Below are positions 15,646 to 54,212 of a stretch of 56,888 nt of DNA, in pieces (the first letter of the stretch is position 1; each line of letters begins with the position of its first letter). The stretch is taken from the IMG/VR virus record IMGVR_UViG_3300023292_000011, positions 1-56,888 of that record. The stretch is one strand, 5' to 3'. A program made the position numbers and the translations under genes. The notes under the pieces are model-generated. The model was given only the letters and a program-made list of their open reading frames with translations. It had not been told where the DNA came from and did no database searches. Origin of the DNA: a virus (Duplodnaviria; Caudoviricetes).

Positions 15646-18600
15646 ATGGCTTCATCAAGATATGTATATGATAAATTAATGGCTAATGAACCTGCATTTA
15701 AAGCATTAACAGAACAGGAAAGACAGACTGCTGCTGATGATATAGCAAACCAAAGAACTACACAAGAAGAGTCTCCTGAACCTGTACAGGGTGGTTTAAG
15801 TAGTATTCAAAGAAATCAATCTTTGCCTTCTTTAAGTGAATCTATATCTTTACCAGAGTTATCACAACCTCAACAGCCACAACAACAGCAAGTACAACCT
15901 GATAATGAAACAAACTCTATATTTATGAATGGTCAGAAGACTGTATTTGGCGGTGATGAAACTGCTGTAAAGAATGTTATTGATTACGATGATACAATAG
16001 ACTTTGTGGATAAGTTCAATCCATTAAAAGAGAAAGGTATAGCTCCTGAAAAGGCCGCTGTATCTGCTTTTGCTTATGGAGCAATAAAGAATAAGATACA
16101 GAATGTTTCTCTCAAAAAACTTTTACAGACAGGTAGAGAAACTTTCAAACAGAGACTTAAAACATTAGTTCCAACTGCAACAGATAATGTAGTTGATAAT
16201 ATGACCAACAATGCTTTTAGAAGAGTTGCAAAGGGTGATGTGACATTGAATGATTTTTTTGTAGAAGCAGGACAGACTAACTCTGTAAATGCTCCTACAA
16301 TGGAATCAGTACAAGTAGATGCTTCACAAGGCCCTTCTGCATCAACAGCAAGAGAAGGTAAAGATATTGCTGAGTTCATATATAAGAATGTAAAAGCAGA
16401 TGAAAGTGATAGAAAGTTTGCTTCTAAAAACTATTATGAATACTTGATGTTCCAAGATGAAAACAATCTTATTAATGAAAATGAAAAAGTAAAGCTTGAT
16501 TACATAAATACTAAAATGGATATGTCACTTGATATAGCAGATGATAATGAATATGAAATATCAAAGAAGAGTTTGATGAATGATATATTCAATATTATAC
16601 CTGAGAAGTCTATGCAATCTTTTGAATATCGTGGTGATGTAAGAGAGAGTAAAATTGAACAAGTTTCTGATAATGTTGAAGTTAAGGATGAAGAATCGTT
16701 AGATACTGACCAATATTTTGATGTCAATAATATGGATCAATATGATGATGCTACAATAGCACAAGCAATGTCAGTTCTTGGCAAGAGAGCATCTTCTATA
16801 CTTGGGGATTTTCTTCCTGCTAAAATAGGTTCTACGATAAAAGGTAAAGATGTAAAACTTGAAGATGTTGGAGCGATAGATAAATTTATTGCCCGTAATA
16901 TGAAAGAGGGAGCTACAACAAGAACTCTTACACCTGAAGAAAGAAAGAAAGTAGTTATACCATTACCTTATGTAGATGATATAACTCTTGGAACAGTAGA
17001 AGATGCTGCTGAAAGTCTTGCTTTTTCTTTATCTAATTTACTTGTAACAGGTAGTGCAGCTTTAGTTGGTTCAGCAATAGGAGCAGGAGAAGGTTCTCTT
17101 GTGAGTCCTGGTGTTGGAACTGCTATTGGAGCAGGTCTTGGCCTTGTAGGTGGTATTGCTTCTACTAAGAGACAAATAGAAAATGATTTTCTTAGAGATA
17201 TGAGAGCAAGATTTTTAGAAGCAAATCCTGGTCCTATAACTCCTGAGTTAAAAGAAAAATGGAATAAAACTAAAAAACTTTTAGATAAACACGCTGAGTT
17301 TAGAGGTTGGTGGGAAGCAGGGCCTGAAACAGTTGGAAATCTTTTAACAATGGGAATGTTCAGACTTCCTGTTGGAAAAGCCATAGGAGCGATTCCTGGA
17401 CTTAAAAGTGATACAGCTAAACTTATAGGCAGTGCATTAATAAAAACAAGCTTTGCACAGAGTACAGAATTACTTGGAGAAACAGTAACAGAAGTAAAGC
17501 AATCTGAAGATGATGCAAAACTTGGATTAATAAAGAAGCCTCTTACATATAATGAAGCTTTCAAAAGAGTTGCACCAGGAACTATAATTCAAGGATTACT
17601 TTCAGCAAGCGGCGGTAAGGTTACTACAGAATTAGAATCTAAAATAAAAAAATACTTTCCTAAAAAAGATAAAAATAAAACTAATCAAACTGATAATGAA
17701 AAACTTGACAAACTACAAGCACAAGAAGCTGACAGAGGTGTAGAAGTAGACCTTACTGAACAAACTAAGCCAGAAGTAATAGCAGAAGATATTGATAATC
17801 TTGATGCTTTATTTGCAGAAGCAGAAGCAACATTTGAGCCTGCTGAAACAGAAACTAAACCTGAAGTAGAACCTGTTGTTGACAAAGTGCAACAAAAACC
17901 TGTAATTGAACCTATACAAGAAAAAATACAATCAGAAACAAAAATAGAATCTGTTAAAGAAGATATTAATGTAAAAGAAAAACCTCTTGTTGAAACAGTT
18001 AAAGACAAAGTTGAACCTAAGAAAAAAGAAATTATAAAACCTAATGAAAAACAAATAAAAATTATTAATATATTGAAGAAAACAACATCATTATTTAAAC
18101 AAAATTTTTTATCCTCAACACCAGAAGCTATAAAAAAATATATTGATAGTTTAAAAGATTCATTAATGGTTGGCGAAGAATTAAATATTAAAAATGTTGG
18201 AGTAAATACTGATAAATTAAAAACTTTTATGAGTAATCATATTAAAAAAATTATTAAAAAAACTGGTGTAAGTGATGGCGATATTAATATTATATATAAA
18301 AGACTTACAGATGAAATAAATAAAGCAGGAAATGAACTTGTTCCTATAAAAAATTTATTAGATAATGTTATAAAAAAAGCGTCTAATGAAATAAGAACTG
18401 GAACAGTACAAGAAAACATAAATAGAGAAGCAAGTTTAAGTTTAAAACAAAATAAAAAAAAATTAAAATATTACCAAGGAGAAATTGACGCTAATTTAAA
18501 TAGAACTAAAGAATATAAAAAAGAAATAAAAGAATATAAAAAAAGAAAAGAAAATTATAAAGGGCAATGGGATAGTTCAATAAAATTAAGAGAAAGATTT

Positions 18601-21600
18601 ATAAAAGAAAACAAAAATAGATTAGTTGAATATAAAGAAAAAATAGAAACATTTAATAAAAAAATTAAAGAATTAAATATTGAAACAGGTAAAATTATAG
18701 GGAAAACTAATTTTGATATAGAATCTAAAAAAGAAGTAGAACCAGTACATGAAACAGCGATTTCAAGAGCAATGAAGTTAGCAAAAGAAAAGAAAGCTAA
18801 CAAGAAACCTCTCGTTGAAGCTGTGAAGACTAAAGTAGAAGCTAAAAAACAAAAGACTATAATCACACCACAAAAACAAGAAGTACAGCCAGAAGCTAAA
18901 ATAGAGCCTGTTAAAGTTAAACCTACACTCAAAGAAACAGTTAAGCAGAAAGTGGCAGTAAAGAAAGCTGATAAATATACTTTTGATATTCCAAAAGATA
19001 AGTTTTCAATATATAAAGTAAACACTCCTAAAGGTGTTAAGTATGCTGTGAAATTGCCAAAAGAATTATCACAAAGTTTCAGTGATCCGTTTTATGATAC
19101 TATTGAAATTGCTGAAAAAGAACAAACATTTGAAATAGAAAAAGAAAAGCGTAATATTGCTTTTAATAAAAAACAAGAAATAATTAAAACAGAAGAAACA
19201 ATAAAGAAAAAAGAACAAGAAAATGTAGATGGCTTTGATAAAGATATGCCTAAAATGCGCAGAGGTCAAGTTATAAAAGCATTAAATAAAATGTTTAATT
19301 TTGATGGCAAACTAATGACAAGAAAAGAAAAGGTTAGAGAACTTGTAAATGACAATGCTAAAATAAGCGTAGAAGAGGTTGATAAAATTCAGCCTATGAC
19401 AAGGTTGGCATCTAACAGAGCGAATCAAAGAGAGCAAGACGCTCATGAACAGAGAATAAAAGATTCAGGTAAGAAAAAAATATATTATGTAGGTGGATAT
19501 GATTTAGGTAAGACTGCTTATGACTATGCTAATCATCTGATGGAGAAAAAAACATCTGTTGGTGATATGAGTGAAAAAAACGTTACATCAAAAGGTAATT
19601 TAATAGCAGGTGAATACTATGGTAAGAACTTTCCTGAAAGTTTTATATCTAAATTAAAAGAACTGTTATCAGGTGTTCTTCCTAAAACTCCAAAGAAAAA
19701 AGAAGATAAAATAATAATTCCAGGACTTGCTAAAGTTATTGATATAGATGTTACTCCAATAAAGAAAAAAATTAAAAAGTCAAATAATCCTATTGAAGAA
19801 ATAATAATTCCTTTTGCAGATAAAACAAGAGAAAAAATTCAATATTCAGGAGTGTTCTTCGATAAAAAGAATCAAAGAATACAAGCAACCAATGGTGGCA
19901 TTTTCATTACTGTAGAAGCAGATGTAAAAGAAGGTGGCATTTTTGAAATAGATAAAAATAATAAAAAACTAACAGGTAAAAAATTAAATGCTGAGTTCCC
20001 TTATGCATCAGAAATAATTGACAATTCAAGCAATCAAAAATATAAACAAATGAAAACAGACGATCTTTTAGATAAAGCAAGAGGTATGTCTGCTGTTGAA
20101 AAACTTTTACAAAATAAAGACGATGTGTTAGCTAAAATAAAACAAGGTGATTTAGAACTTCGTATAAATCCAAATAATTTGCAAAAGGCATTAGAAACTT
20201 TTAAAAAGTTAGGAATAGATGAAATAGAAGTTTCAATTAAAGAAGCCTATGAACCTATGAGAATAAGAGACGCTAACAATAAAAAAAATATAGCTTTTAT
20301 AATGCCTATTAGAAATTCATTCGCTAAGGTTACTACTTCATTTGACTTGAATAATCCTACTGGTAAACAAGACACTAAGCTACAAGCAGTTGACAAAGAT
20401 ATAGATGATACTTGGAATAAGTTAAATAAAGAAAATAATAAAAGATTAGGTATGAACCCTTTGCCTTCATTAAAAGCAACAGTGCTTACAACAAAACTTG
20501 TTTATAATTATGCTAAAAAAGGAATGTATATATTTGAAGATATAATTAATGATTTAAAAAATAAATTTGGAGTTGTGTCAGAAAAAATAAAAAATAATAT
20601 CAAAAATATTTTAAGTAAAAGTCCTATAAAAACTAAAAGTGGAACTAAAATAAAAAGATATAAAAATATAGTAGGAAAAGAAATTGGTGGTAAAATTTAT
20701 GTTCATAAAAAATATGCAGATAAAGTAATTCCAAAACAATTATTAAATAATGCTAAAAAAATATTAAATGAATCAAATCCAGAATTTAAATATAACGCTA
20801 TATCTTATGATAAAAAAACTGATACAGTAAGATTTGATGAAGCCCCTGATTTTAACTCTGCAACTGAACCAACTATAGGTAATTATATTTCAATTACACA
20901 AAATAAAGAAGTTTCAAAAGGAAGCAGTAATTCTATATGGCATCATAAGTGGTTATGGGTAACTGATGATTATAACGGATTTAATGTTTATGACAGTAAA
21001 AATAGAAGCAGATATTGGCTTTCTAAAATAAATGGAAAAGCAAGTGGTTCTAAAACAATATTTGAACAACAATTAAAAGCTAATGACGAAAATAAAGAAA
21101 ATGAAATTTTTACAGATACTTTTTCAGAACAAGCAGGAAAAACAGCGAGACCATGGAAAGTAACAAAAACATACAAAGCGGCTTTAGAAATAATAAAAGA
21201 TGGAGATAATGTTCTTGATTATGGTTCAGGACCATTTCAAAAAGTTAAATCCTCTGTAAAGTCTAAAGGTGGAAAATATTTTGCATTTGATAGATATGGG
21301 AATATAGGAGATATTTCTTTTTTAAAAAACAAAGATGTTGTAATGGGAAGTAATGTTTTAAATACTGCTGTATATGCAGATAATCCAACAAAAGCATATC
21401 ATGAAGCACTTAACGAAATGGCAAGTGCATTAAAACCAAATGGAACATTAGTTGTAAATATGCCTTCGTCTGGCCCACAGGCAACATGGATGAATTCTAT
21501 AGGTCTTGAAAATGATTTAAAAAATATTTTTAAAAATGTAAAAAGAAAAGGTGAAGTTGTTTTTGCATCTGGATTAAAAGAAAAATCAATAAGAAATATT

Positions 21601-24600
21601 AATATTGACAAAGAAATAGAAAATGCTTGGAAAGAAGTTAAGAGGGCACAAGGTAAAATACTTGGCGGTTTAGTACCAATGAACGCACCGCTTGTTAAAG
21701 CTTCTGTTAAGCTCATTAAAGCTTGCTTTAAAAAAGGTATATATAAACTACAAGACATAACTAAAAGTGTTCTCAGTAGAGTTACAGCAGATAAAAGAAA
21801 CGATTATATAAAAGGATTAAAGCAAGCAATGAATCAGCTCATAGATGATCCTAACACTGATACATCTAAAGTTGGTATGACTAAGGATGAAGTTAATGCT
21901 TATGATCCTGATAAAGTTGTAGAGCCTATTAAGATTGATACAAAAGAAATAAAGAAATCTGAAGTTAAGAAAACTGAAAAGATTGAAACTAAACCTACTG
22001 GAAATATAGAAGATAACAGAGTGTTTAAGTCTCTTGAAAACTCAAGACAGCTTTCTAAAATAAAAAGAAAAATAACTGCAAAGAAAATTTTTAAATCATT
22101 AAAAAGAAACTTAATTGATGAATCAGGCAATTTAAAAGATAAACTACTTGAAACTCCATTAGGTAAAAAAGCAGTAAAATATCAAGAGTTAATGGCAGGT
22201 GCTACTTCAAAGGCTGAACTTCAAATAGATAAAGCTCACAACGATATATATAAAGATCTTACGAAAAAAGAAAAGACAAATTATTTAGATACTTATGTTT
22301 TTGCTAAAAGGTCTATTGAAATATTGAAAAGAAAACCTAATTTTACAGTACAAGCAAATGCTTCCATAGCAGAACTTGAAGCTTTAATAGATGAAATACC
22401 AGATAATGTTATGAAGAAAATAGAGTCTAAGGCAAGTATTTATTGGAAGACACTTGATAGTCAATTAAATCAATTAAAAGAAGCAGGACTTATTACAGAA
22501 AAAGGAATTAAAAGATTAAAAGAAACAGGTGAATATTATTCTCCAAGAGAAGTTCTTGATTATATAGATCCTGACGGAACTTTTTATGATGGCAATGGAA
22601 AAATAACTATTCCTGATAGTGGTATAAAAAAACTTACTGATGAAGGTAGTTTAAGACTTGTAGAAACTGACACAGCATATTTGCTCACATCTGTAATATC
22701 AAGAACTCAAGCAAGAATATCTAAAAATAAAGCAAATGTAGCATTATATGAAATGGCAAAATCTAATCCTGATAACGAAATAGTTACTATTGCTAAAAAA
22801 GATGAAGACCTTCAACCTGGATTTGAAAAGATAAGTGTTATGATAGATGGTAATAAAGAACAATTAATTATGCCATCTGACTTAGCTGTTGAGTGGGTTA
22901 AAAGTAATCCTATATTAAATTCTTTTCAAGCCGAAGTATTAAGTTTAGCAACAGGAACTAAAATTTTAAAAACAATGGCTACTGGTATAAATCCTGAATT
23001 TGTAATTACAAACATGCCAAGAGATATTGCACATATATTTTTATCCACAAATGAATTTTCTCCAACATCTCCTATTGCCGCTGCTCAAATGGCAAAAAGA
23101 CTTTCAGAAGTATTTTCAGATGCAATAAAAAGAAAAGGTCGCTATATTGATTTTATAAACGAAGGTGGTGGAATGGGTTTTCTTACACATCAAGGTAGAA
23201 TTTTTGAAAGAAATATAAACTCAGAAATATCTAAAATCCAAGATGTATTAGGCTATTCAGGAGAAACTTCAGAAATACTTACAAGATTAGCATTAAGAGA
23301 ACAAGCACTTATAAATATTGCAAAAGAAAAAGGTGTTAAAATTTCAGAGCTTTCATTAGAAGATAGAGAAGAAGCAACATGGATAGCAAGAGGCTATCTT
23401 GATTTCTCTCAAGGTGGTAGAATGGCGAAAGCTTTAAACAGTGGCCTTCCATATATAAATGCAAGGATTCAAGGCACAAGAGGTATTTTTAGGGCTTTTA
23501 AAGAAAGACCTGTTCAAACTACTTATAAAGCGGTACAGATTGGAATTGTAAGTTCTCTTCTTTATATGTTGAATTTAGGAATAGATGAAGATGAATATGA
23601 TAAAATATCTCCTTCTGATAAAAGAAATTATTTCAATATATTAGTACCTAACAGCGATTATAAAGATAAAGAAGGAAACAGTAGAAAAGTTTATGTAAAA
23701 ATAGCAAAAGACCAAGGACAAAGAACTATAAGTTATATATTTGAAGCATTGACCGCGAAAGCGTTAGGAAAAGAAATTGATGTAAACCAAATAGTTGAAA
23801 CAATTAAAGACCTTTCACCATATATACCTTCTCAAGATTTACCTCCATTCGTAGATGCTTTTATTTCTTATGGTTCAAATATAGATTTTTGGAGAGGTCA
23901 ACCTATTTGGAAAAAAGAAAAAGTAGAAGCAGGTGCAGAACAAACTTCTTATACACATCCTTTTTTCAGAGCTATAGGAGATAAAACAAACTTGTCTCCT
24001 AATAGATTAAAAGTTGCTCTTGAACAAGTTTTCACATCAGGAAATATTTATACATCAGCAGCAGATTTAGCTTGGAATAAACTTTTCGGGAAAGACAAAA
24101 TAGATGATACTGTAATTCAGAATAAAATATTAAACTTTCCTTTTATACGCAAATTTATGAAAAAGACTGATTCTTATAATAAATATCAAAAGAAAATAGA
24201 TGAAGCTAAAATTAAAGCTAATACAAAAAAATATAGAAACACACTTAAATTAGATGATATGATTCAAGATTATTTCAATGAAAGAAAAACTAAAGAAGAG
24301 GTAAATACTTTTATAGAAAACCAAGAGACTCCTTTAGAAACAAAAAGATTGAAAAGAAGGTTTTCTGATAGTGAAAAGTTAAAAGATATTCCTGATAGAA
24401 GATGGTGGTTTGGAATTAAAGAACTCTCTCCTGAAATAAAAGCACAACAGTTTTGGTTAAGATGGTCTCAATCAAATGATGCTGAAAAGAAACAGTTAAA
24501 AGAAACATTAGATAAATTTCCTGGAATGAAGTCTAAAAGGTTTCTTAAAGCTTTAAACGCAAGAACTGAAAGAGATGAAAAATTTGAACAGGCTTCTAAA

Positions 24601-24648
24601 AAATCTGGTAGAATTAGAACAACAAGGCGAAGAGTGAAAAGAAGATAA
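15646..24648 (+). CDS. 3000-aa internal virion/ejection polyvalent protein with beta-clamp-like, SAM-methyltransferase and LPD38-like regions
   Basis: Gly-rich hydrophobic segment near aa 460-505; QATNG..EFP..INP..FIMPIR; VLDYGSG..SNVLN; NPEFVITNMPRD, LDFSQGG and PYINARIQG C-terminal motifs. Confidence 0.75.
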   Translation: MASSRYVYDKLMANEPAFKALTEQERQTAADDIANQRTTQEESPEPVQGGLSSIQRNQSLPSLSESISLPELSQPQQPQQQQVQPDNETNSIFMNGQKTVFGGDETAVKNVIDYDDTIDFVDKFNPLKEKGIAPEKAAVSAFAYGAIKNKIQNVSLKKLLQTGRETFKQRLKTLVPTATDNVVDNMTNNAFRRVAKGDVTLNDFFVEAGQTNSVNAPTMESVQVDASQGPSASTAREGKDIAEFIYKNVKADESDRKFASKNYYEYLMFQDENNLINENEKVKLDYINTKMDMSLDIADDNEYEISKKSLMNDIFNIIPEKSMQSFEYRGDVRESKIEQVSDNVEVKDEESLDTDQYFDVNNMDQYDDATIAQAMSVLGKRASSILGDFLPAKIGSTIKGKDVKLEDVGAIDKFIARNMKEGATTRTLTPEERKKVVIPLPYVDDITLGTVEDAAESLAFSLSNLLVTGSAALVGSAIGAGEGSLVSPGVGTAIGAGLGLVGGIASTKRQIENDFLRDMRARFLEANPGPITPELKEKWNKTKKLLDKHAEFRGWWEAGPETVGNLLTMGMFRLPVGKAIGAIPGLKSDTAKLIGSALIKTSFAQSTELLGETVTEVKQSEDDAKLGLIKKPLTYNEAFKRVAPGTIIQGLLSASGGKVTTELESKIKKYFPKKDKNKTNQTDNEKLDKLQAQEADRGVEVDLTEQTKPEVIAEDIDNLDALFAEAEATFEPAETETKPEVEPVVDKVQQKPVIEPIQEKIQSETKIESVKEDINVKEKPLVETVKDKVEPKKKEIIKPNEKQIKIINILKKTTSLFKQNFLSSTPEAIKKYIDSLKDSLMVGEELNIKNVGVNTDKLKTFMSNHIKKIIKKTGVSDGDINIIYKRLTDEINKAGNELVPIKNLLDNVIKKASNEIRTGTVQENINREASLSLKQNKKKLKYYQGEIDANLNRTKEYKKEIKEYKKRKENYKGQWDSSIKLRERFIKENKNRLVEYKEKIETFNKKIKELNIETGKIIGKTNFDIESKKEVEPVHETAISRAMKLAKEKKANKKPLVEAVKTKVEAKKQKTIITPQKQEVQPEAKIEPVKVKPTLKETVKQKVAVKKADKYTFDIPKDKFSIYKVNTPKGVKYAVKLPKELSQSFSDPFYDTIEIAEKEQTFEIEKEKRNIAFNKKQEIIKTEETIKKKEQENVDGFDKDMPKMRRGQVIKALNKMFNFDGKLMTRKEKVRELVNDNAKISVEEVDKIQPMTRLASNRANQREQDAHEQRIKDSGKKKIYYVGGYDLGKTAYDYANHLMEKKTSVGDMSEKNVTSKGNLIAGEYYGKNFPESFISKLKELLSGVLPKTPKKKEDKIIIPGLAKVIDIDVTPIKKKIKKSNNPIEEIIIPFADKTREKIQYSGVFFDKKNQRIQATNGGIFITVEADVKEGGIFEIDKNNKKLTGKKLNAEFPYASEIIDNSSNQKYKQMKTDDLLDKARGMSAVEKLLQNKDDVLAKIKQGDLELRINPNNLQKALETFKKLGIDEIEVSIKEAYEPMRIRDANNKKNIAFIMPIRNSFAKVTTSFDLNNPTGKQDTKLQAVDKDIDDTWNKLNKENNKRLGMNPLPSLKATVLTTKLVYNYAKKGMYIFEDIINDLKNKFGVVSEKIKNNIKNILSKSPIKTKSGTKIKRYKNIVGKEIGGKIYVHKKYADKVIPKQLLNNAKKILNESNPEFKYNAISYDKKTDTVRFDEAPDFNSATEPTIGNYISITQNKEVSKGSSNSIWHHKWLWVTDDYNGFNVYDSKNRSRYWLSKINGKASGSKTIFEQQLKANDENKENEIFTDTFSEQAGKTARPWKVTKTYKAALEIIKDGDNVLDYGSGPFQKVKSSVKSKGGKYFAFDRYGNIGDISFLKNKDVVMGSNVLNTAVYADNPTKAYHEALNEMASALKPNGTLVVNMPSSGPQATWMNSIGLENDLKNIFKNVKRKGEVVFASGLKEKSIRNINIDKEIENAWKEVKRAQGKILGGLVPMNAPLVKASVKLIKACFKKGIYKLQDITKSVLSRVTADKRNDYIKGLKQAMNQLIDDPNTDTSKVGMTKDEVNAYDPDKVVEPIKIDTKEIKKSEVKKTEKIETKPTGNIEDNRVFKSLENSRQLSKIKRKITAKKIFKSLKRNLIDESGNLKDKLLETPLGKKAVKYQELMAGATSKAELQIDKAHNDIYKDLTKKEKTNYLDTYVFAKRSIEILKRKPNFTVQANASIAELEALIDEIPDNVMKKIESKASIYWKTLDSQLNQLKEAGLITEKGIKRLKETGEYYSPREVLDYIDPDGTFYDGNGKITIPDSGIKKLTDEGSLRLVETDTAYLLTSVISRTQARISKNKANVALYEMAKSNPDNEIVTIAKKDEDLQPGFEKISVMIDGNKEQLIMPSDLAVEWVKSNPILNSFQAEVLSLATGTKILKTMATGINPEFVITNMPRDIAHIFLSTNEFSPTSPIAAAQMAKRLSEVFSDAIKRKGRYIDFINEGGGMGFLTHQGRIFERNINSEISKIQDVLGYSGETSEILTRLALREQALINIAKEKGVKISELSLEDREEATWIARGYLDFSQGGRMAKALNSGLPYINARIQGTRGIFRAFKERPVQTTYKAVQIGIVSSLLYMLNLGIDEDEYDKISPSDKRNYFNILVPNSDYKDKEGNSRKVYVKIAKDQGQRTISYIFEALTAKALGKEIDVNQIVETIKDLSPYIPSQDLPPFVDAFISYGSNIDFWRGQPIWKKEKVEAGAEQTSYTHPFFRAIGDKTNLSPNRLKVALEQVFTSGNIYTSAADLAWNKLFGKDKIDDTVIQNKILNFPFIRKFMKKTDSYNKYQKKIDEAKIKANTKKYRNTLKLDDMIQDYFNERKTKEEVNTFIENQETPLETKRLKRRFSDSEKLKDIPDRRWWFGIKELSPEIKAQQFWLRWSQSNDAEKKQLKETLDKFPGMKSKRFLKALNARTERDEKFEQASKKSGRIRTTRRRVKRR

Positions 24649-41243: not shown

Positions 41244-41252
41244 TAAGATTAT

Positions 41253-41325
41253 GCAGGATTAGCTCAACTGGTAGAGCGTCGCCCTTTGACGGCGAATGTT
41301 AAAGGTTCAAATCCTTTATCCTGTG
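41253..41325 (+). tRNA. trnQ: tRNA-Gln (anticodon TTG), no encoded CCA
   Basis: GCAGGAT/ATCCTGT, GCTC/GAGC, TCGCC-CTTTGAC-GGCGA, AAAGG-TTCAAAT-CCTTT. Confidence 0.9.
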
Positions 41326-41334
41326 AAACAAACA

Positions 41335-47979: not shown

Positions 47980-48562
47980 GAAGGAAAACATATATAATGG
48001 CGTAGAGTTTGATTCACAAGAAGAGATTATGTTTTATATATGGCTTGTAGAAGCTGAGTTGAATGGCTTTATATTTCCTAAGAGTGTTGTGTATCATCCT
48101 GATCCTTTTCTATTGCAAGATAAGATTTCCGCTCCTTCCCTTAAAAGAATGAAAATTAAAAATAAGATAGTAATGAAACATTTATTGCATCCCATTACTT
48201 ATCAGGCTGATTTTAAAGTTACCTTTACTAAAAAGTTTCAAGATACTTTTATAAATCATGGATTATATTTTCCTGCTAAAAAAAATAAAGGAAAGATAGT
48301 TGAGGATCTTTGTGTATATTTTGATGTAAAGGGTGGTGTTGGTGCTAATTTGAACAGAAATAATTCTTCTGCTTATACTTTTATGCCTAAAATTAAGTGG
48401 CTATGGAACAAATACAATATATATATAAATAAACTTGTTCCAAAAAAATATTTTTCTAAGACTTTCTGTCCTGAACTGCTTTATTATTGCAAAAATAGAA
48501 AAGTGGCAACAGTAAGGTCTGCATTTAAACGGTGTAAGCTACTTAAAGACATTATTAAGTAA
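47957..48562 (+). CDS. DUF1064-like PD-(D/E)XK endonuclease (resolvase-like)
   Basis: NGVEFDSQEE, ITYQADF, FDVKGG. Confidence 0.75.
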   Translation: MVKVKTVKKENIYNGVEFDSQEEIMFYIWLVEAELNGFIFPKSVVYHPDPFLLQDKISAPSLKRMKIKNKIVMKHLLHPITYQADFKVTFTKKFQDTFINHGLYFPAKKNKGKIVEDLCVYFDVKGGVGANLNRNNSSAYTFMPKIKWLWNKYNIYINKLVPKKYFSKTFCPELLYYCKNRKVATVRSAFKRCKLLKDIIK

Positions 48563-48564
48563 AG

Positions 48565-48600
48565 AAATAGCCCTCTGAAGCGTATCAGGGGGCTATTTTT
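48565..48600. terminator. Bidirectional terminator between convergent operons
   Basis: AAATAGCCCTCTGA / TCAGGGGGCTATTT stem with A and T flanks. Confidence 0.85.
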
Positions 48601-48630
48601 ATGTTTACGATGATTCTTGTTAGTTATAAT

Positions 48631-48888
48631 TTACTTTCTCCTTGAAAAGTATAAGCGTCTCTCTACTGGCTTAGTTTTAGGTTTCCACTTACCAGGTATC
48701 CATCTACCGAACTGACACTTAGTACATCTTAGGTCTGTAAAACTCTTGCTTGTTATAAAAGTATGCCCACAGTGAGCACAATGGTATTTTCTGCGTTCCA
48801 CTACCTCTAAAAGCGTAAAATTCTTATTCATCAACACCATATCATCATCAGTCAATTTTGATCCATCCATTTTAATTATTCCTTTCAA
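48631..48888 (-). CDS. Zinc-ribbon protein
   Basis: CAHCGH..CTKC. Confidence 0.6.
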   Translation of the reverse strand: MKGIIKMDGSKLTDDDMVLMNKNFTLLEVVERRKYHCAHCGHTFITSKSFTDLRCTKCQFGRWIPGKWKPKTKPVERRLYFSRRK

Positions 48889-49219
48889 ATTTTCGTCTCT
48901 TATCTTTTTCGTAATAGTAATCGTTTCTTATGCACGCCCTGATATATTCGGAGTTTGTAAGTTTCTTTACCTTAACAAGATACTTCAGCATTTCAATCTC
49001 TTCTCTGTACAGATTGAAACCTTTTACTTTTACTTTCAGCTTCGGGTCTTTGGCAGGTCTGCCTTTTGTCTGTGTACCTTTGTATAAAGGATTATCCTTT
49101 GGCATAACTGGTTCTTTTATGTGTGATCTCTTTATGTAGCCTATTTTAATCACCTCCCTTGTTATCGTCTGGCGTGTCTTCTTTGTCGTCTCCTGTGTAG
49201 GCTTCTTCTGGTTCTTCAA
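48872..49219 (-). CDS. RHH-type DNA-binding protein with an AT-hook-like KGRP; start uncertain
   Basis: KVKGFNL strand, LTNSEYIRACI helix. Confidence 0.55.
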   Translation of the reverse strand: MKNQKKPTQETTKKTRQTITREVIKIGYIKRSHIKEPVMPKDNPLYKGTQTKGRPAKDPKLKVKVKGFNLYREEIEMLKYLVKVKKLTNSEYIRACIRNDYYYEKDKRRKFERNN

Positions 49220-49285
49220 TGAATGATTTGAAAAAACTATCCTTCAGGGTTTCAGACACTAAACAATTTTTGATAATACAATCTT

Positions 49286-49453
49286 TCATTTTTTATCTTT
49301 CCTTTCATTTGCATCATAGGCAATATCAATTTCCATTTTCTTCCGGCAGGTTTTACACATACCATGAGAAAAAATATTGTCCTTGGACGGTTTCATAATG
49401 AATCCACAGTAAGAACATTTAAAGCCTATTTCTTGACCTTTATTATTCAGCAT
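49286..49453 (-). CDS. Small zinc-finger protein (not in track)
   Basis: CSYCG...SHGMCKTC. Confidence 0.5.
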   Translation of the reverse strand: MLNNKGQEIGFKCSYCGFIMKPSKDNIFSHGMCKTCRKKMEIDIAYDANERKDKK

Positions 49454-49535
49454 GGTTTGCCTTCTTTCTTTATCCAGGACTTGAGACCTGAACTGTCCTT
49501 TAATATCGGATGTATAGTCCGATACCTCTCAGGGA

Positions 49536-49787
49536 TTAATCAAATATTCTCATTTCCCATGATTCTTTATTTGGATATATCAATTTAAAAGCTTTATTTG
49601 TTTTAAACTCTGCAATCATGTTATTTGCTATTTGCTTTAACTCTTCGTCTGTCTTTGCTGAAAAACTTTTACCTTGTTGCCTACCTTCATAAACTAAAAT
49701 AGCATCCTTTGTTATATCTCCTATTACGACTCCTCTTACTGATTCAATCATTTTTTTCCTCTTTCGTTCCTTAATATTAAATACCAT
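49536..49787 (-). CDS. Hypothetical protein (start probably 49751)
   Basis: GAGG RBS before the second ATG. Confidence 0.5.
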   Translation of the reverse strand: MVFNIKERKRKKMIESVRGVVIGDITKDAILVYEGRQQGKSFSAKTDEELKQIANNMIAEFKTNKAFKLIYPNKESWEMRIFD

Positions 49788-49835
49788 GTTATGCAGCTTG
49801 TAACGCTGTAAACTATTGCACCAAGTATAATGTAT

Positions 49836-49985
49836 TTATCTGACATACTCAAACTCGCTTCTGGTTCGGATTACAAGCTTTCCAGTATGTTTAAGTGCTA
49901 TGGTGTAAATAGTTCCTCTCTGGCTTATGATTGTGCCTTGTGTGCAGTCTTTTAAATAAACTTGTTTCCCTATGTTGAATCGCAT
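49836..49985 (-). CDS. 49-aa SH3-like hypothetical protein (not in track)
   Basis: AAAGGA RBS; MRFNIGKQVYL..GTII. Confidence 0.45.
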   Translation of the reverse strand: MRFNIGKQVYLKDCTQGTIISQRGTIYTIALKHTGKLVIRTRSEFEYVR

Positions 49986-50056
49986 TGTTATTAATTCCTT
50001 TCCATTATTTCAAGAGCCCAACTGTTTCAAGTGTTGCCATGATATCCCCTCTCAGT

Positions 50057-50275
50057 CTAATAAAAACAACTGTGATAATCGTCAATTCCGAAGTCGACTA
50101 TTTCAGCACATATTATGTCTGTGTGGTCTGTTGCTTCGTCTGTGATTGCATATCCGTAAGTTTCTTTGATAATGCAAAATTCCTCTATGTCATAATTTTC
50201 TTTTGCTTCCGCATCGTTTGCCATTTCAGAAAGCTTTTTTAGTGCTTTGTTGTAATCTTCAAATTTTAACATCAT
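50057..50275 (-). CDS. Acidic hypothetical protein
   Basis: AAGGGAG RBS. Confidence 0.6.
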   Translation of the reverse strand: MMLKFEDYNKALKKLSEMANDAEAKENYDIEEFCIIKETYGYAITDEATDHTDIICAEIVDFGIDDYHSCFY

Positions 50276-50311
50276 GTTTTATACTCTCCCTTATATTTAT
50301 TTGGTTGTAAT

Positions 50312-50352
50312 AAAAAAACCCGATATAACATCAATTAAGACATTATATCGGG
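50312..50352 (-). terminator. Terminator of the early operon
   Basis: Minus strand CCCGATATAA..TTATATCGGG then T7. Confidence 0.8.
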
Positions 50353-50407
50353 CTAACCGAATAATTTGATTTAAGGTTCAAATTAGCAAAAACCTTTTAA
50401 TTGTTTT

Positions 50408-50977
50408 TTAGAAACTTGCAAGCTTAATTTCTTGCCAGTCTCCATTTTCAGTCCAGTCTTCCAGAACTATCCAGCCGACGTTAGAAAGTTTGACGGCTTT
50501 AAAAAACCATGAATCACCATCACCACACTGGTTTTCACCAAGCTCCAAGGTTGCTCCTTTTTTTGCTTGTGTTAAGGCCTCAAAGAAGGCCTGAAATCCC
50601 TCTTTTACTTCTTCTTCGGTTGGGATGTCATCCTCTATGTGATTAGACCCATCGGTATTAGCGGAAGGGATATAAGAAACACCATCCAAAATATTCCAAG
50701 CACAACCACCACCTGCACTTGTTTCGTGATTCCAAGGTGCTGGGGCAGTTTGTATCCTTGAAATAAGTTTTTTTTCTGAAAGGATCTGAATATCTCCAAG
50801 ATTGAACTGTGGGTTGAAATCTTTGTGAGAGGATTTAAATGTTTCCACAAAGAAGTTTTTTAACTCCTTGTGGATTTTCACGGTCGTTAAACCGCTTTTG
50901 TAAACTATCTTTGTTAAAAAATCATTTACTTGCCTGGTCTCTTGGTTTCTTCTTGCTTTTAATGTTGTAAAGTTCAT
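50408..50977 (-). CDS. Hypothetical early protein
   Basis: AAGGGAG RBS; 189 aa. Confidence 0.7.
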   Translation of the reverse strand: MNFTTLKARRNQETRQVNDFLTKIVYKSGLTTVKIHKELKNFFVETFKSSHKDFNPQFNLGDIQILSEKKLISRIQTAPAPWNHETSAGGGCAWNILDGVSYIPSANTDGSNHIEDDIPTEEEVKEGFQAFFEALTQAKKGATLELGENQCGDGDSWFFKAVKLSNVGWIVLEDWTENGDWQEIKLASF

Positions 50978-51050
50978 ATTAATTCTCCCTTTTTCGATTC
51001 TTATCCAGAACCGCCCACAAGAATTTAAGAGCTTGTTTTCTCTTTGGTTT

Positions 51051-51107
51051 CCTATTAGCCCAATTAAGGGCTTTCGACCGATTACCGTTCGGCTCTCTTC
51101 AAACAGG
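51051..51107 (-). ncRNA. Hammerhead ribozyme candidate (type I, U3 variant)
   Basis: CCUGU-UUGAAGA-GAGCCGA(ACGGUAA)UCGGUC-GAAA-GCCC(UUAAUU)GGGC-UA-AUAGG. Confidence 0.7.
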
Positions 51108-51509
51108 TTAGTTAATTAAGAAGTCAACACCATGATTTTTAGCGGTTTGGATTATTTTATGCGCCATAAAAGCAAACCAAGAATTTACCATATTATCTTT
51201 TTGTTTTTCGGTATAGCTTTTATCGTCTGTGAAGTTATGGAGCTTTTTGCAGGTTTCGAAAATCTGGTAATAAGTATAATCAAGATTAAAAGCTGTAGGA
51301 AGGCCGGAAAGCCATTCCTTTAAAACATTTTCAATGCTGCCATATCTTTTAAGATGTGCTGGAAAAACATATTCAGTGCAAAAGCGATCTTTTAAAGTTT
51401 GAAGTTTTTCGGTTTCTGTCATGTTTTTTGGATATGTTTCTATATCGTCCATACACTCAAAAATATATGTTTCCATTCTGCCATTAAATTCTTTTGTATT
51501 TGTTTTCAT
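51108..51509 (-). CDS. Hypothetical early protein
   Basis: GGGAGGT RBS; EWLSGLP motif. Confidence 0.7.
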   Translation of the reverse strand: MKTNTKEFNGRMETYIFECMDDIETYPKNMTETEKLQTLKDRFCTEYVFPAHLKRYGSIENVLKEWLSGLPTAFNLDYTYYQIFETCKKLHNFTDDKSYTEKQKDNMVNSWFAFMAHKIIQTAKNHGVDFLIN

Positions 51510-51634
51510 AATTAATACCTCCCAGTATTGTTATTATTGTTTAACCTGTCTCATCAGTGCCAAGCAGTAGTTTAATTTCGTCAATATGCGCTATTTCTAC
51601 AATAAAATTGTAGATGTATAATCCTATTCTGCTT

Positions 51635-52006
51635 TTAAAAGTTTTCATAATTTGCGACTGTATGTATAATATTTGATATCATTTCTGTTGTGAAAATAAA
51701 TTGATATTTCTTTGTCCCACATTGATATCTTTCAATTTTGGATATATCCCAGCTCGATTTTTTTCTAATAAGAGTGAATTGTGTACTTTCAGGAGTACCT
51801 TTATATCTCCCCGAAAATTTTTGTGCTTCAGGATCTACATTTACTTTTGTATCAACCCAGTACTTTTTCGGTGAATACTGGGAAAGATATTTCTCGATTT
51901 TTTTGATTTCTGTTAAAATATCTTGATAATTAATATTTCTCGATCTGGATCTGCTTTGGCATTTTGCCAATTCTGCTGTTATTTTCTTTTCATTGTTAAT
52001 ATTCAT
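51635..52006 (-). CDS. Hypothetical early protein
   Basis: GGGAGGT RBS before ATG 52006. Confidence 0.7.
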   Translation of the reverse strand: MNINNEKKITAELAKCQSRSRSRNINYQDILTEIKKIEKYLSQYSPKKYWVDTKVNVDPEAQKFSGRYKGTPESTQFTLIRKKSSWDISKIERYQCGTKKYQFIFTTEMISNIIHTVANYENF

Positions 52007-52042
52007 TGTCAATACCTCCCAGTATTACTTTAAGAATGTTAC

Positions 52043-52106
52043 GCAGGGCTTGAGACCTGCTAAGCCCTTTAATAAGAGAGCAATTAAACCCTCTTATCTC
52101 TCAGGA
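52043..52106 (-). ncRNA. Twister ribozyme candidate (P5-type permutation)
   Basis: CCU-GAGAG-AUAAGAG..CUCUUAU-UAA-AGG-GC-UUA-GCAGG(UCUCAAGC)CCUGC. Confidence 0.75.
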
Positions 52107-52107
52107 T

Positions 52108-52677
52108 TTAAGCAGCTTCCCAGAGTTCTTCTATTTGCCAACCTTCAAGCGTTCCACCTGTTTTTATTTTATCGTCCTTTGTGTAAACATCATAATAAAT
52201 ATTATTTAAGCTATAATCTTTTACTATATCTTCAATAATATTTAATTGATTTCGTTTAATATTATCGTTTATTCTTACTGTTAAATCTCCATCTGATATG
52301 TGAACTGTAATTATTTGTTCGTTGTACCAAGTATCAATATCTATTATTCTGTGATCATCACCAGGTATTGACACCATAGAACCATCGGAAAATATAAATC
52401 CATGATCGCCAGCATGACCAGTAAAACAATTATAATCTTCTTTTCTTTTTTCAAGGTATTCGTTAAAATTTGAATCTTCTATAAATGCAGAATCTGATAA
52501 AGGGCTTTCTTCTTCTTCTTTATACCATGTACAAAACTCTTCAAAATTACAACATACGATTTCAAAAGCTTTTTGTTCTGCTATTGTTTCAAAACTTTCT
52601 GACCATGTTATAAATTCTTGTTCTAAGTTTTCGTATCTCTCAGTTATATCTTTTATTTCTTCTTGTAAAAAACTCAT
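52108..52677 (-). CDS. Acidic hypothetical early protein
   Basis: AAGGAGGT RBS; GFIFSDG..DHR motif. Confidence 0.7.
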   Translation of the reverse strand: MSFLQEEIKDITERYENLEQEFITWSESFETIAEQKAFEIVCCNFEEFCTWYKEEEESPLSDSAFIEDSNFNEYLEKRKEDYNCFTGHAGDHGFIFSDGSMVSIPGDDHRIIDIDTWYNEQIITVHISDGDLTVRINDNIKRNQLNIIEDIVKDYSLNNIYYDVYTKDDKIKTGGTLEGWQIEELWEAA

Positions 52678-52689
52678 GTTAATACCTCC

Positions 52690-52893
52690 TTATATTTTTG
52701 ATACTAATTCTTTTAATTCTTTTAATGTTTTAGCTTTAATTTCACCGTCGAAAGCTGTGTATATATCATCTCTAACTTTTATTATTTTATTTGTTTTATA
52801 ATCAAAGTCTTTTTCAAAATTGTATAATGCTATGCACTTAAATTCACATCCATTTGAATCTTTAGTTATAAATGTTTTTGTTGTCATATTCAT
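52690..52893 (-). CDS. Hypothetical protein, first gene of the early operon
   Basis: AAAGGA RBS, downstream of a consensus promoter. Confidence 0.65.
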   Translation of the reverse strand: MNMTTKTFITKDSNGCEFKCIALYNFEKDFDYKTNKIIKVRDDIYTAFDGEIKAKTLKELKELVSKI

Positions 52894-52943
52894 TTTGTTA
52901 TTCCTTTCATTTATTTGTCTTACATTAAACCCCGATTTCCTTA

Positions 52944-52971
52944 ATTATACTCCTATATCGTATCATGTCAA
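52944..52971 (-). promoter_or_regulatory. Strong early sigma70 promoter
   Basis: Minus strand TTGACA-16-TATAAT with AT-rich UP-like region. Confidence 0.85.
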
Positions 52972-53079
52972 TGGGTTATTTAATTATTTTTCATTTTATT
53001 TATATTTAATTTGTACTTGCCAGTAATACCAGTACATCCAAGCGTTATATATATACATCTATATTATATATAACTCATA

Positions 53080-53120
53080 GGTAACGGTAAGTAACGGTGG
53101 GTAACGATTGGTAACGGTAG
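53080..53120. repeat. Four GTAACG repeats at ~10-11 bp spacing
   Basis: GGTAACGGTAA GTAACGGTGG GTAACGATTG GTAACGGTAG. Confidence 0.75.
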
Positions 53121-54000
53121 TGGTCATGTGTATATTGTCACTTTTATAGCCATATTGCCAATAAATTCTCATAATGATACACTTTGTTTATATATATCTC
53201 CATATCTCATATATCCCCTGAACCAGTTCAATATAATATATATCGTCTGCAATATATCATCATATCCCTACATCATCACACAGTAGCTTTACAGGCTCTT
53301 ATATATAGTATTATATATATATCTATATATAGGAAGATATCGGCATCATGCTTCAATCACGATTCATTGTGTTGCTATATGCTGTCATCATTATTATATA
53401 TATCATTATTCAATCATTGCAGAAATATATCAGCATATCCACATATAGAGCTATATCATACAGGAGAATAGCATATACCACCCCGATATATATTATCATC
53501 ATGATCATTATATATAGAGATAGATGTTTATATTATGTTGTTTGCCTGGTCATTATGTTAGATCATGTTTTTTCAAGGATTTATTCCTGGCCATGGTAGG
53601 GTAGGGGATGGATTTCAGAATTTATTTATTAGATACTATATACATCCCTATGATTATATATGGGGTAAATTACTCGTAGGAATAGGCCCCTATGATTATA
53701 TATTACCTTATATTTTCTGTAGAATGATGTTTCATAAATCATTATCCGCCATGTTAGTTGTCATATTAATCATTATTCATAAAAAATATAAAAAAATTAA
53801 AAAAAATAAAGCATTGAAAACCGTTGATATCACTTAGATATAAAAATTATTTTAAAAAATTAAAAAAAAAATTAAAATAAAATGAATGGAATGAATGTAA
53901 AAACAGTCTAACAAGTAAAGCTTGGCACAAGCTTGAGAATGTTCACAGGCTCACGCTCTCAGCTTGCTGAAGCACTTGTTAGTTTTAGAAATAATCTCAC

Positions 54001-54036
54001 TTAGTTAGTTAATAACTTACTTAGTTAGTTAGTTAG
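54001..54036. repeat. (TTAG)n short tandem repeats
   Basis: TTAGTTAGTT..TTAGTTAGTTAGTTAG. Confidence 0.7.
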
Positions 54037-54081
54037 CGTGTAAGACAAATAAACAAATAGTATATATAAACAAAATAATAG

Positions 54082-54110
54082 TTGTATGAAATTAAAAAAG
54101 TAAGTATAAT
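54082..54110 (+). promoter_or_regulatory. Sigma70 promoter for a candidate sRNA
   Basis: TTGTAT-17-TATAAT. Confidence 0.6.
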
Positions 54111-54116
54111 TAAATA

Positions 54117-54212
54117 GACATTAAAAATCTCCAATCGAATATTGCTAACTCTCTCAGGTTACGGTGTTCTATCTCCCTTAAAGGTATGTGTTTAGCGGCA
54201 CATGCCTTTTTT
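54117..54212 (+). ncRNA. Candidate ~95-nt small RNA with CU-rich anti-SD segments
   Basis: Bounded by promoter and terminator; no credible ORF. Confidence 0.45.
54180..54212 (+). terminator. Intrinsic terminator
   Basis: AAAGGTATGTG / CACATGCCTTT then T-tract. Confidence 0.8.

Follow-up and report, generated by a model that had tools for sequence, protein, structure and literature searches.

The twister class of self-cleaving RNAs was described in 2014 by Roth et al., as related in the reviews PMC5408937 and PMC6765202. In the account of PMC5408937, the bioinformatic consensus has a P2 stem of four Watson-Crick pairs and P5 is an optional stem. According to PMC6765202, twisters were placed in bacterial 3' UTRs by Felletti et al. 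2017, they share the contexts of hammerhead ribozymes, and they have been suggested to process polycistronic transcripts, with the role unproven. Both PMC6765202 and PMC10085705 say that it is not established what twisters do in bacteria and phages, and PMC10085705 adds that there is as yet no explanation for the association of twisters and hammerheads with one another and with phage genes. A literature search outside the primary twister papers found no paper on phage twister arrays, on forms without P5 or on conversion between twister modules.

Hammerhead ribozymes of prophages occur in multiple copies that flank single genes, and they cleave in vitro and in vivo, as reported by Perreault et al. 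2011 (PMC3088659). Like the twisters studied here, they are found in phage DNA on the gene strand and flank genes or short gene blocks, and the same paper proposed that they process long phage transcripts. They form a structurally unrelated class, and their cleavage was shown, whereas that of the ribozymes of the present phage is predicted. The glmS ribozyme is likewise a bacterial self-cleaver embedded in mRNA that alters the fate of the message (as summarized in PMC6765202). It differs in its metabolite cofactor, its location in a 5' UTR and its family; the twister described below shows no sign of a ligand pocket, and an Rfam scan gave no glmS match in the window, as we call the whole stretch of DNA that was analyzed.

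The window is an IMG/VR virus record of an uncultured phage, which is 56.9 kb long, linear and estimated to be 64% complete. It encodes a large terminase, a primase-helicase, a C5 methylase and a PD-(D/E)XK nuclease, and its G+C content ranges from 26 to 37% in 2-kb windows. The identity of the terminase to named phages does not exceed about 39%. No DNA relative of positions 48500-53200 was found in INPHARED by blastn at a distant setting, and no relatives of the flanking proteins (189 aa; 133 aa) were found in IMG/VR. Elsewhere in the window, a tRNA-Gln with anticodon UUG was found at 41252-41326(+) by both Rfam and ARAGORN, and a single ORF of 3000 aa extends over 15646-24648(+) in the structural region.

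The initial annotation had described a twister ribozyme candidate opened at P5, and all the elements it had listed were found on the minus strand where it had placed them. They belong to the first of two copies in the window, the 52k copy:

52044-52105, minus strand: type-P5 twister ribozyme (52k copy), 62 nt, a match to Rfam RF02684
52105-52103 and 52068-52066, minus strand: P2, CCU with AGG, 3 pairs
52102-52098, minus strand: L1, GAGAG
52097-52090 and 52079-52072, minus strand: P1, AUAAGAG(G) with (U)CUCUUAU
52071-52069, minus strand: UAA, with the predicted scissile bond between U52071 and A52070
52065-52064, minus strand: GC after P2, a strand of T2
52059-52056 and 52047-52044, minus strand: P4, CAGG with CCUG, extended to 52043 by an additional G-C pair
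52055-52048, minus strand: P4 loop, UCUCAAGC
52100-52098 and 52054-52052, minus strand: T1 pseudoknot, GAG with CUC, complementary
52065-52064 and 52049-52048, minus strand: T2 pseudoknot, GC with GC, complementary

A cmsearch with the Rfam Twister-P5 model, which had been named in advance as a test, was positive. The 52k copy matched RF02684 (Twister-P5, clan CL00120) over model positions 1-58 of 58 with 42.6 bits against a gathering score of 37.6 bits, and with an E value of 1.4e-5 as computed for the whole window against 4227 Rfam families. At the gathering score, these families gave exactly three matches in the window, the tRNA and two Twister-P5 ribozymes, and the scan found no other ribozyme family up to E 5. 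A core descriptor matched twice in the window and in none of 100 dinucleotide-preserving shuffles. The match of the 52k copy thus exceeds chance expectation. With our own covariance model R1 it scored 54.5 bits, the sequence itself being one of the seeds of that model. No third twister was found in the window with our own model and filters off, the next best match having an E value of 1.9. The Rfam score of the 52k copy is low, with 84 of the 93 Rfam hits from the window and the related loci described below scoring higher.

The elements follow one another as P2 strand, P1 hairpin, UAA, P2 strand and P4 hairpin, in agreement with the structure line of RF02684, so the termini are at P5 and both P1 and P4 are closed hairpins. 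The proposed opening at P5 is therefore borne out by the order of the type-P5 permutation in the RF02684 alignment. The two proposed pseudoknots hold as well, both being complementary, with T1 formed between L1 and L4 and T2 between the GC of L2 and L4. The stems comprise 8-10 pairs in P1, 3 in P2 and 4-5 in P4; the P1 strands (AUAAGAGG and UCUCUUAU) are extendable to 10-11 pairs in the predicted fold. The cleavage site that had been predicted between U52071 and A52070 falls correctly on the U-A step of UAA. The locus is like RF02684 in its element order, its P1, P2 and P4 stems, T1 and T2, the UAA junction and the L1 and L4 nucleotides. It deviates from the consensus in three ways: P2 of the 52k copy has 3 pairs and the consensus 4 in the description of PMC5408937, with cmscan dropping one position on each side; the middle pair of its T1 is A-U and that of the consensus g-c; and the ends of the window copies are not closed by a P5 helix, their flanks forming no more than 3 adjacent pairs (-1.3 and +0.1 kcal/mol). 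These deviations are common to many phage copies in IMG/VR. The conserved features of the window copies correspond to the defining twister features that PMC5408937 lists.

The initial annotation did not contain a second copy, nor the intercistronic context of these ribozymes in phages. The second copy lies on the same strand:

49475-49533, minus strand: second type-P5 twister (49k copy), RF02684 45.8 bits, predicted scissile bond between U49502 and A49501

P1, P2, P4, T1 and T2 are all retained in both window copies. In their pairwise alignment, the sequence of P1 differs throughout with the pairing kept, and T2 shows a compensatory swap from GC/GC in the 52k copy to AC/GU in the 49k copy. Both copies match 14 of the 14 columns with at least 90% conservation in 85 other distinct phage twister rows, including UAA, the GA of L1, and the G, U, AAG and C of L4/P4, and both carry the nucleotides that the Rfam consensus gives in upper case. 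The minimum-free-energy fold of the 49k copy is the native one with P1, P2 and P4. That of the 52k copy is non-native in nested folding, at -23.4 kcal/mol compared with -11.4 kcal/mol for the native nested fold, a value that leaves the pseudoknots uncounted and includes only 8 P1 pairs. The competing hairpin pairs AGGGCUU with AAGCCCU within 52044-52068(-), takes up the 3' strands of P2 and P4, and contains both T2 pairs. Since this hairpin is favored over the native nested fold, the 52k copy may fold less efficiently than the 49k copy. In the downstream product of the 52k copy, the same hairpin would form a cap at the 5' end after cleavage.

Since no syntenic twister was available for comparison, relatives were gathered through a ribozyme-core pattern, which makes the sample biased: IMG/VR was scanned with a core descriptor derived from the window's own copies, and 28 loci were obtained. 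A scan of these loci at the Rfam gathering score gave 91 matches (45 + 46), all of them Twister-P5 and located in 27 of the 28 loci, and no other ribozyme family was found in them at that score. Together with the two from the window, these made 93 Rfam sequences, from which 24 were hand-picked for diversity and aligned with MAFFT. Under the structure with both pseudoknots, 97.9% of the 480 cells of this alignment were paired, compared with 62.5% in shuffles, and 18 of the 20 pairs showed changes on both sides. Our own model from the 24-sequence alignment found 101 hits in the window and the 28 loci. Among the 87 distinct model-aligned rows, 98.3% of cells were paired, compared with 26.0-41.0% when the partners were slid by 1-3 columns. 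The stems P1, P2 and P4 were 96.9-99.4% paired in these rows, figures that lean towards the model as far as the nested stems are concerned. T1 and T2 were part of no model used; they were 98.8% and 100% paired, with changes on both sides. Some loci are redundant, L008, L010 and L025 being identical and L003 and L019 99.7% alike.

Two caveats had been attached to the candidate from the start, a P2 of 3 bp and the lack of a strong P5, and both are real. To judge their weight, one can consider the 86 complete phage twisters, no two of them identical, that the window and the 28 IMG/VR loci provide. Only 43 of the 86 could form a fourth pair in P2, and this pair would consume a nucleotide needed by T2. 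No P5 signal was found in the flanks of the 86, which pair no better than mismatched flanks: the duplex energy was -1.17 kcal/mol compared with -1.05 ± 0.17 kcal/mol for mismatched flanks, a value this low being reached by 49 of 200 controls, while the junction helix had 2.28 pairs compared with 2.26 in the mismatched-flank controls. The absence of a P5 signal across the set indicates that the phage twisters are open at the P4/P2 junction with no closing stem. A P2 of four pairs is not a family-defining feature, and, judging from these relatives, the short P2 and the absent P5 do not weigh against membership among the twisters. On its sequence features, we assign 52044-52105(-) as a genuine type-P5 twister self-cleaving RNA, an ordinary addition to a known family. 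Taken by itself, the 52k twister is a routine annotation within a curated family.

Both ribozymes lie on the gene strand within the sole minus-strand gene block of the window (about 52893 to 48631). The neighboring features, in the direction of the genes, are:

52944-52971, minus strand: promoter-like site TTGACA-16-TATAAT, 12 of 12 sigma-70 consensus matches, from a scan only
52690-52893, minus strand: first minus-strand gene, downstream of the promoter-like site
52108-52677, minus strand: upstream ORF, 189 aa, TAA stop at 52110-52108, 2 nt before the 52k ribozyme, no family
51635-52006, minus strand: downstream ORF, 123 aa, ATG at 52006, 37 nt past the 3' end of the ribozyme, no family
50317-50354, minus strand: terminator-like hairpin, 16 pairs then a T run, after the ORF 50408-50977, from a scan only
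49536-49787, minus strand: ORF, 83 aa, TAA stop 2 nt before the 49k ribozyme
49286-49453, minus strand: ORF, 55 aa, start 21 nt after the 49k ribozyme, weak zinc-ribbon matches

The Shine-Dalgarno (SD) sequence GGGAGG at 52020-52015 lies 8 nt ahead of the ATG at 52006. In PHROGs and Pfam, the neighboring proteins matched no family with a known function. On sequence grounds, 52971-52944(-) is a candidate start and 50354-50317(-) a candidate end of the transcript carrying the 52k ribozyme; the promoter scan of the window gave 50 promoter-like sites with 36.5 expected, and the terminator-like site falls between the 52k and 49k copies. A plus-strand ORF of 81 aa at 51993-52238, which overlaps the ribozyme and the end of the 189-aa ORF, was treated as spurious.

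Upstream of the block, positions 53000-54200 form about 1.2 kb of AT-rich sequence with many AT-rich repeats and without convincing ORFs, which may be a regulatory region or an origin lying between gene blocks that diverge. GGTAACG-type repeats with 10-nt spacing occur at 53080-53118, directly upstream of the minus-strand promoter, and TAACTAA-type repeats at 53996-54031. Our own model found a weak twister-like stretch without P1 and UAA at 53927-53963(-) (E 2.3), and a 17-nt direct repeat is present at 53949-53965 and 54144-54160, the minus-strand reading of which has CUGAGAG, a motif of the ribozyme 5' end. The stretch and the repeat could be a relic or due to chance.

The same placement was seen in the relatives. 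All 101 hits in the window and the 28 IMG/VR loci lie on one strand per locus. A same-strand ORF ends beside the ribozyme in 91 of the 101 hits, within -5 to +8 nt in 81 and with a median of 1 nt, and an SD-like site with a start codon follows in 97 at a median of 28 nt; these distances stand without a null model, in loci that were chosen by a pattern from the window's own copies. In the related contigs the arrangement seems strict, the ribozyme beginning at the stop codon and the SD lying about 15-20 nt behind it. The window copies occupy the intercistronic position that is typical of their phage relatives. Dense one-strand arrays were found in eight of the loci (L013, L019, L030, L003, L022, L007, L020 and L015), with 13 hits in 12.8 kb in L013 (11 at the Rfam gathering score), 12 in L019, 9 in L030, and 8 each in L003 and L022. 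Consecutive ribozymes are mostly 200-1100 nt apart, which is about the length of one small gene, and in the arrays there is roughly one ribozyme between neighboring small genes of unknown function. The proteins directly behind the ribozymes (80 distinct, median 105 aa) hit 15 PHROG families and 5 Pfam families, none of known function.

We consider it probable that 52044-52105(-) is a functional type-P5 twister within a polycistronic phage transcript and splits the mRNA by co-transcriptional cleavage. The transcript would start at the promoter at 52971-52944(-), carry two small genes, the ribozyme and three genes, and end at the terminator at 50354-50317(-). After the 62 nt emerge, P1, P2 and P4 would form, T1 and T2 would lock the fold, and self-cleavage would take place between U52071 and A52070. 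A cut at U52071 is predicted to give one product with a 3'-terminal hairpin and one with a 5'-proximal hairpin. The upstream mRNA would keep a 37-nt tail past its stop codon, ending in the P1 hairpin and a 2',3'-cyclic phosphate. The downstream mRNA would have a 5'-OH end and, two nucleotides from it, a hairpin, followed by the leader, the Shine-Dalgarno sequence and the ATG at 52006. 5'-OH ends stabilize mRNA against RNase E, and in the glmS case 5'-OH mRNA ends are reportedly attacked by RNase J1. The two halves of the operon would then be translated and degraded independently of each other, and the 49k copy would act likewise in the next gene block. RiboJ-type parts are engineered ribozyme insulators, and the window ribozyme would be like them in cutting off the context upstream of the SD and leaving a defined, hairpin-capped 5' end; the engineered insulators are synthetic, whereas the window ribozyme is natural. 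The family membership rests on sequence, structure and covariation and the intercistronic placement is observed, and to these we add cleavage, transcript boundaries and an effect on expression, which we infer. The idea of splitting by cleavage is not new, having been proposed earlier for prophage hammerheads in PMC3088659 and for twisters in PMC6765202.

The same structure and placement would be expected if cleavage served to lower or time the expression of accessory genes, by exposing the downstream mRNA (through its 5'-OH) or the upstream mRNA (through loss of the terminator hairpin) to host RNases. The evidence for such control is identical to that for mRNA splitting, and glmS offers a precedent in which cleavage reduces expression (described in PMC6765202). 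However, the type-P5 order leaves hairpins at both new ends, which seem protective rather than exposing, and in related phages twisters border nearly all small genes of a block (in L013, L019, L022 and L030 the gaps measure 120-1100 nt). Since twisters surround nearly every small gene, general processing fits better than control of particular genes, and we regard down-regulation as an unlikely main function.

A role at the DNA level was also considered, in which the stop-to-start module is a junction for cassette exchange by homologous recombination and RNA cleavage is secondary or ancestral. Several homology breaks are consistent with it. A match of 1580 bp between L022 and L030 stops at the first nucleotide of a twister, and HSPs of 90-113 bp between non-syntenic sites span a twister and 26-52 nt downstream. 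DNA contigs from related strains (runs X2-X4; run X1 gave none) are mosaic with respect to the window: in runs X2 and X4 the homology ends at 49487, within the 49k twister, and in runs X2 and X3 it ends precisely at the ATG at 52006. The loci L003 and L019 are 99.7% identical over 7143 bp, but L003:1900-2080(-) and L019:5155-5335(+) differ by a patch of about 35 nt in which precisely the P4 stem, with its pairing kept, and the leader are exchanged. The replacement patch matches another twister module of the same phage (L003:3289), and in sequence it looks like gene conversion between modules. On the other hand, covarying stems and pseudoknots and the invariant core columns show selection on an RNA fold, which a DNA junction would not need. 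Internal HSP ends fall inside twisters in 20 of 62 cases with about 11.5 expected, but this count mostly reflects the repeated module, which inflates it, and informative, independent breakpoints are few. The contigs compared with the window come from DNA metagenomes (the 8 listed runs are all DNA), and joints at 80% likeness in such contigs can stem from other organisms. An exchange junction with cleavage as a by-product or leftover is therefore quite improbable in our judgement. In the same contigs, a 170-nt segment within 49239-49410, most of the 55-aa ORF, was skipped in three runs (X2-X4).

Cleavage of the mRNA, which we prefer, would fail if the 52k match were a decayed or chance look-alike that does not cleave. 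Its score is only 5 bits over the gathering threshold, its P2 has only 3 pairs, and nested folding favors the competing hairpin. But the E value of 1.4e-5 for the window, the absence of the descriptor from all 100 shuffles, the intact 14 conserved columns, the complementary T1 and T2 and the compensatory differences in the 49k copy speak against a look-alike; a 3-pair P2 and the lack of P5 are usual among the 86 relatives. We hold a non-cleaving look-alike to be very unlikely. Least probable is a reading in which the cleavage ends feed an RtcB-type RNA ligase to yield circular or rejoined RNAs, or serve counter-defense. It draws only on the chemistry of 5'-OH and 2',3'-cyclic-phosphate ends described in PMC8782182 and on the small genes without assigned function behind the twisters. 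Against it, a Pfam scan of ten ORFs of the window showed no ligase gene, and a terminator-like site separates the two copies in the window.

With splitting of the mRNA as the preferred reading, the window is a compact natural test case, in which a consensus promoter is followed by two genes, the ribozyme, three genes and a terminator. The layout rule of a ribozyme at the stop codon with an SD behind it makes the mRNA-processing hypothesis directly testable. A broader and more tentative idea, which we consider rather unlikely, is that everything from the stop codon to the next start codon forms one portable module of about 90-105 nt, made up of a P5-less type-P5 twister, an A-rich leader and an SD, with roles in both RNA and DNA. 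If this is true, the module would act on RNA by separating groups of small orphan genes into messages of one gene each, whose ends are hairpin-capped, and on DNA it would be a site of cassette swapping, with modules converting each other. The two copies in the window would then be a sparse instance of this portable-module system, which would belong to a widespread group of uncultured phages and in which the unit of RNA processing is also the unit of genome mosaicism.
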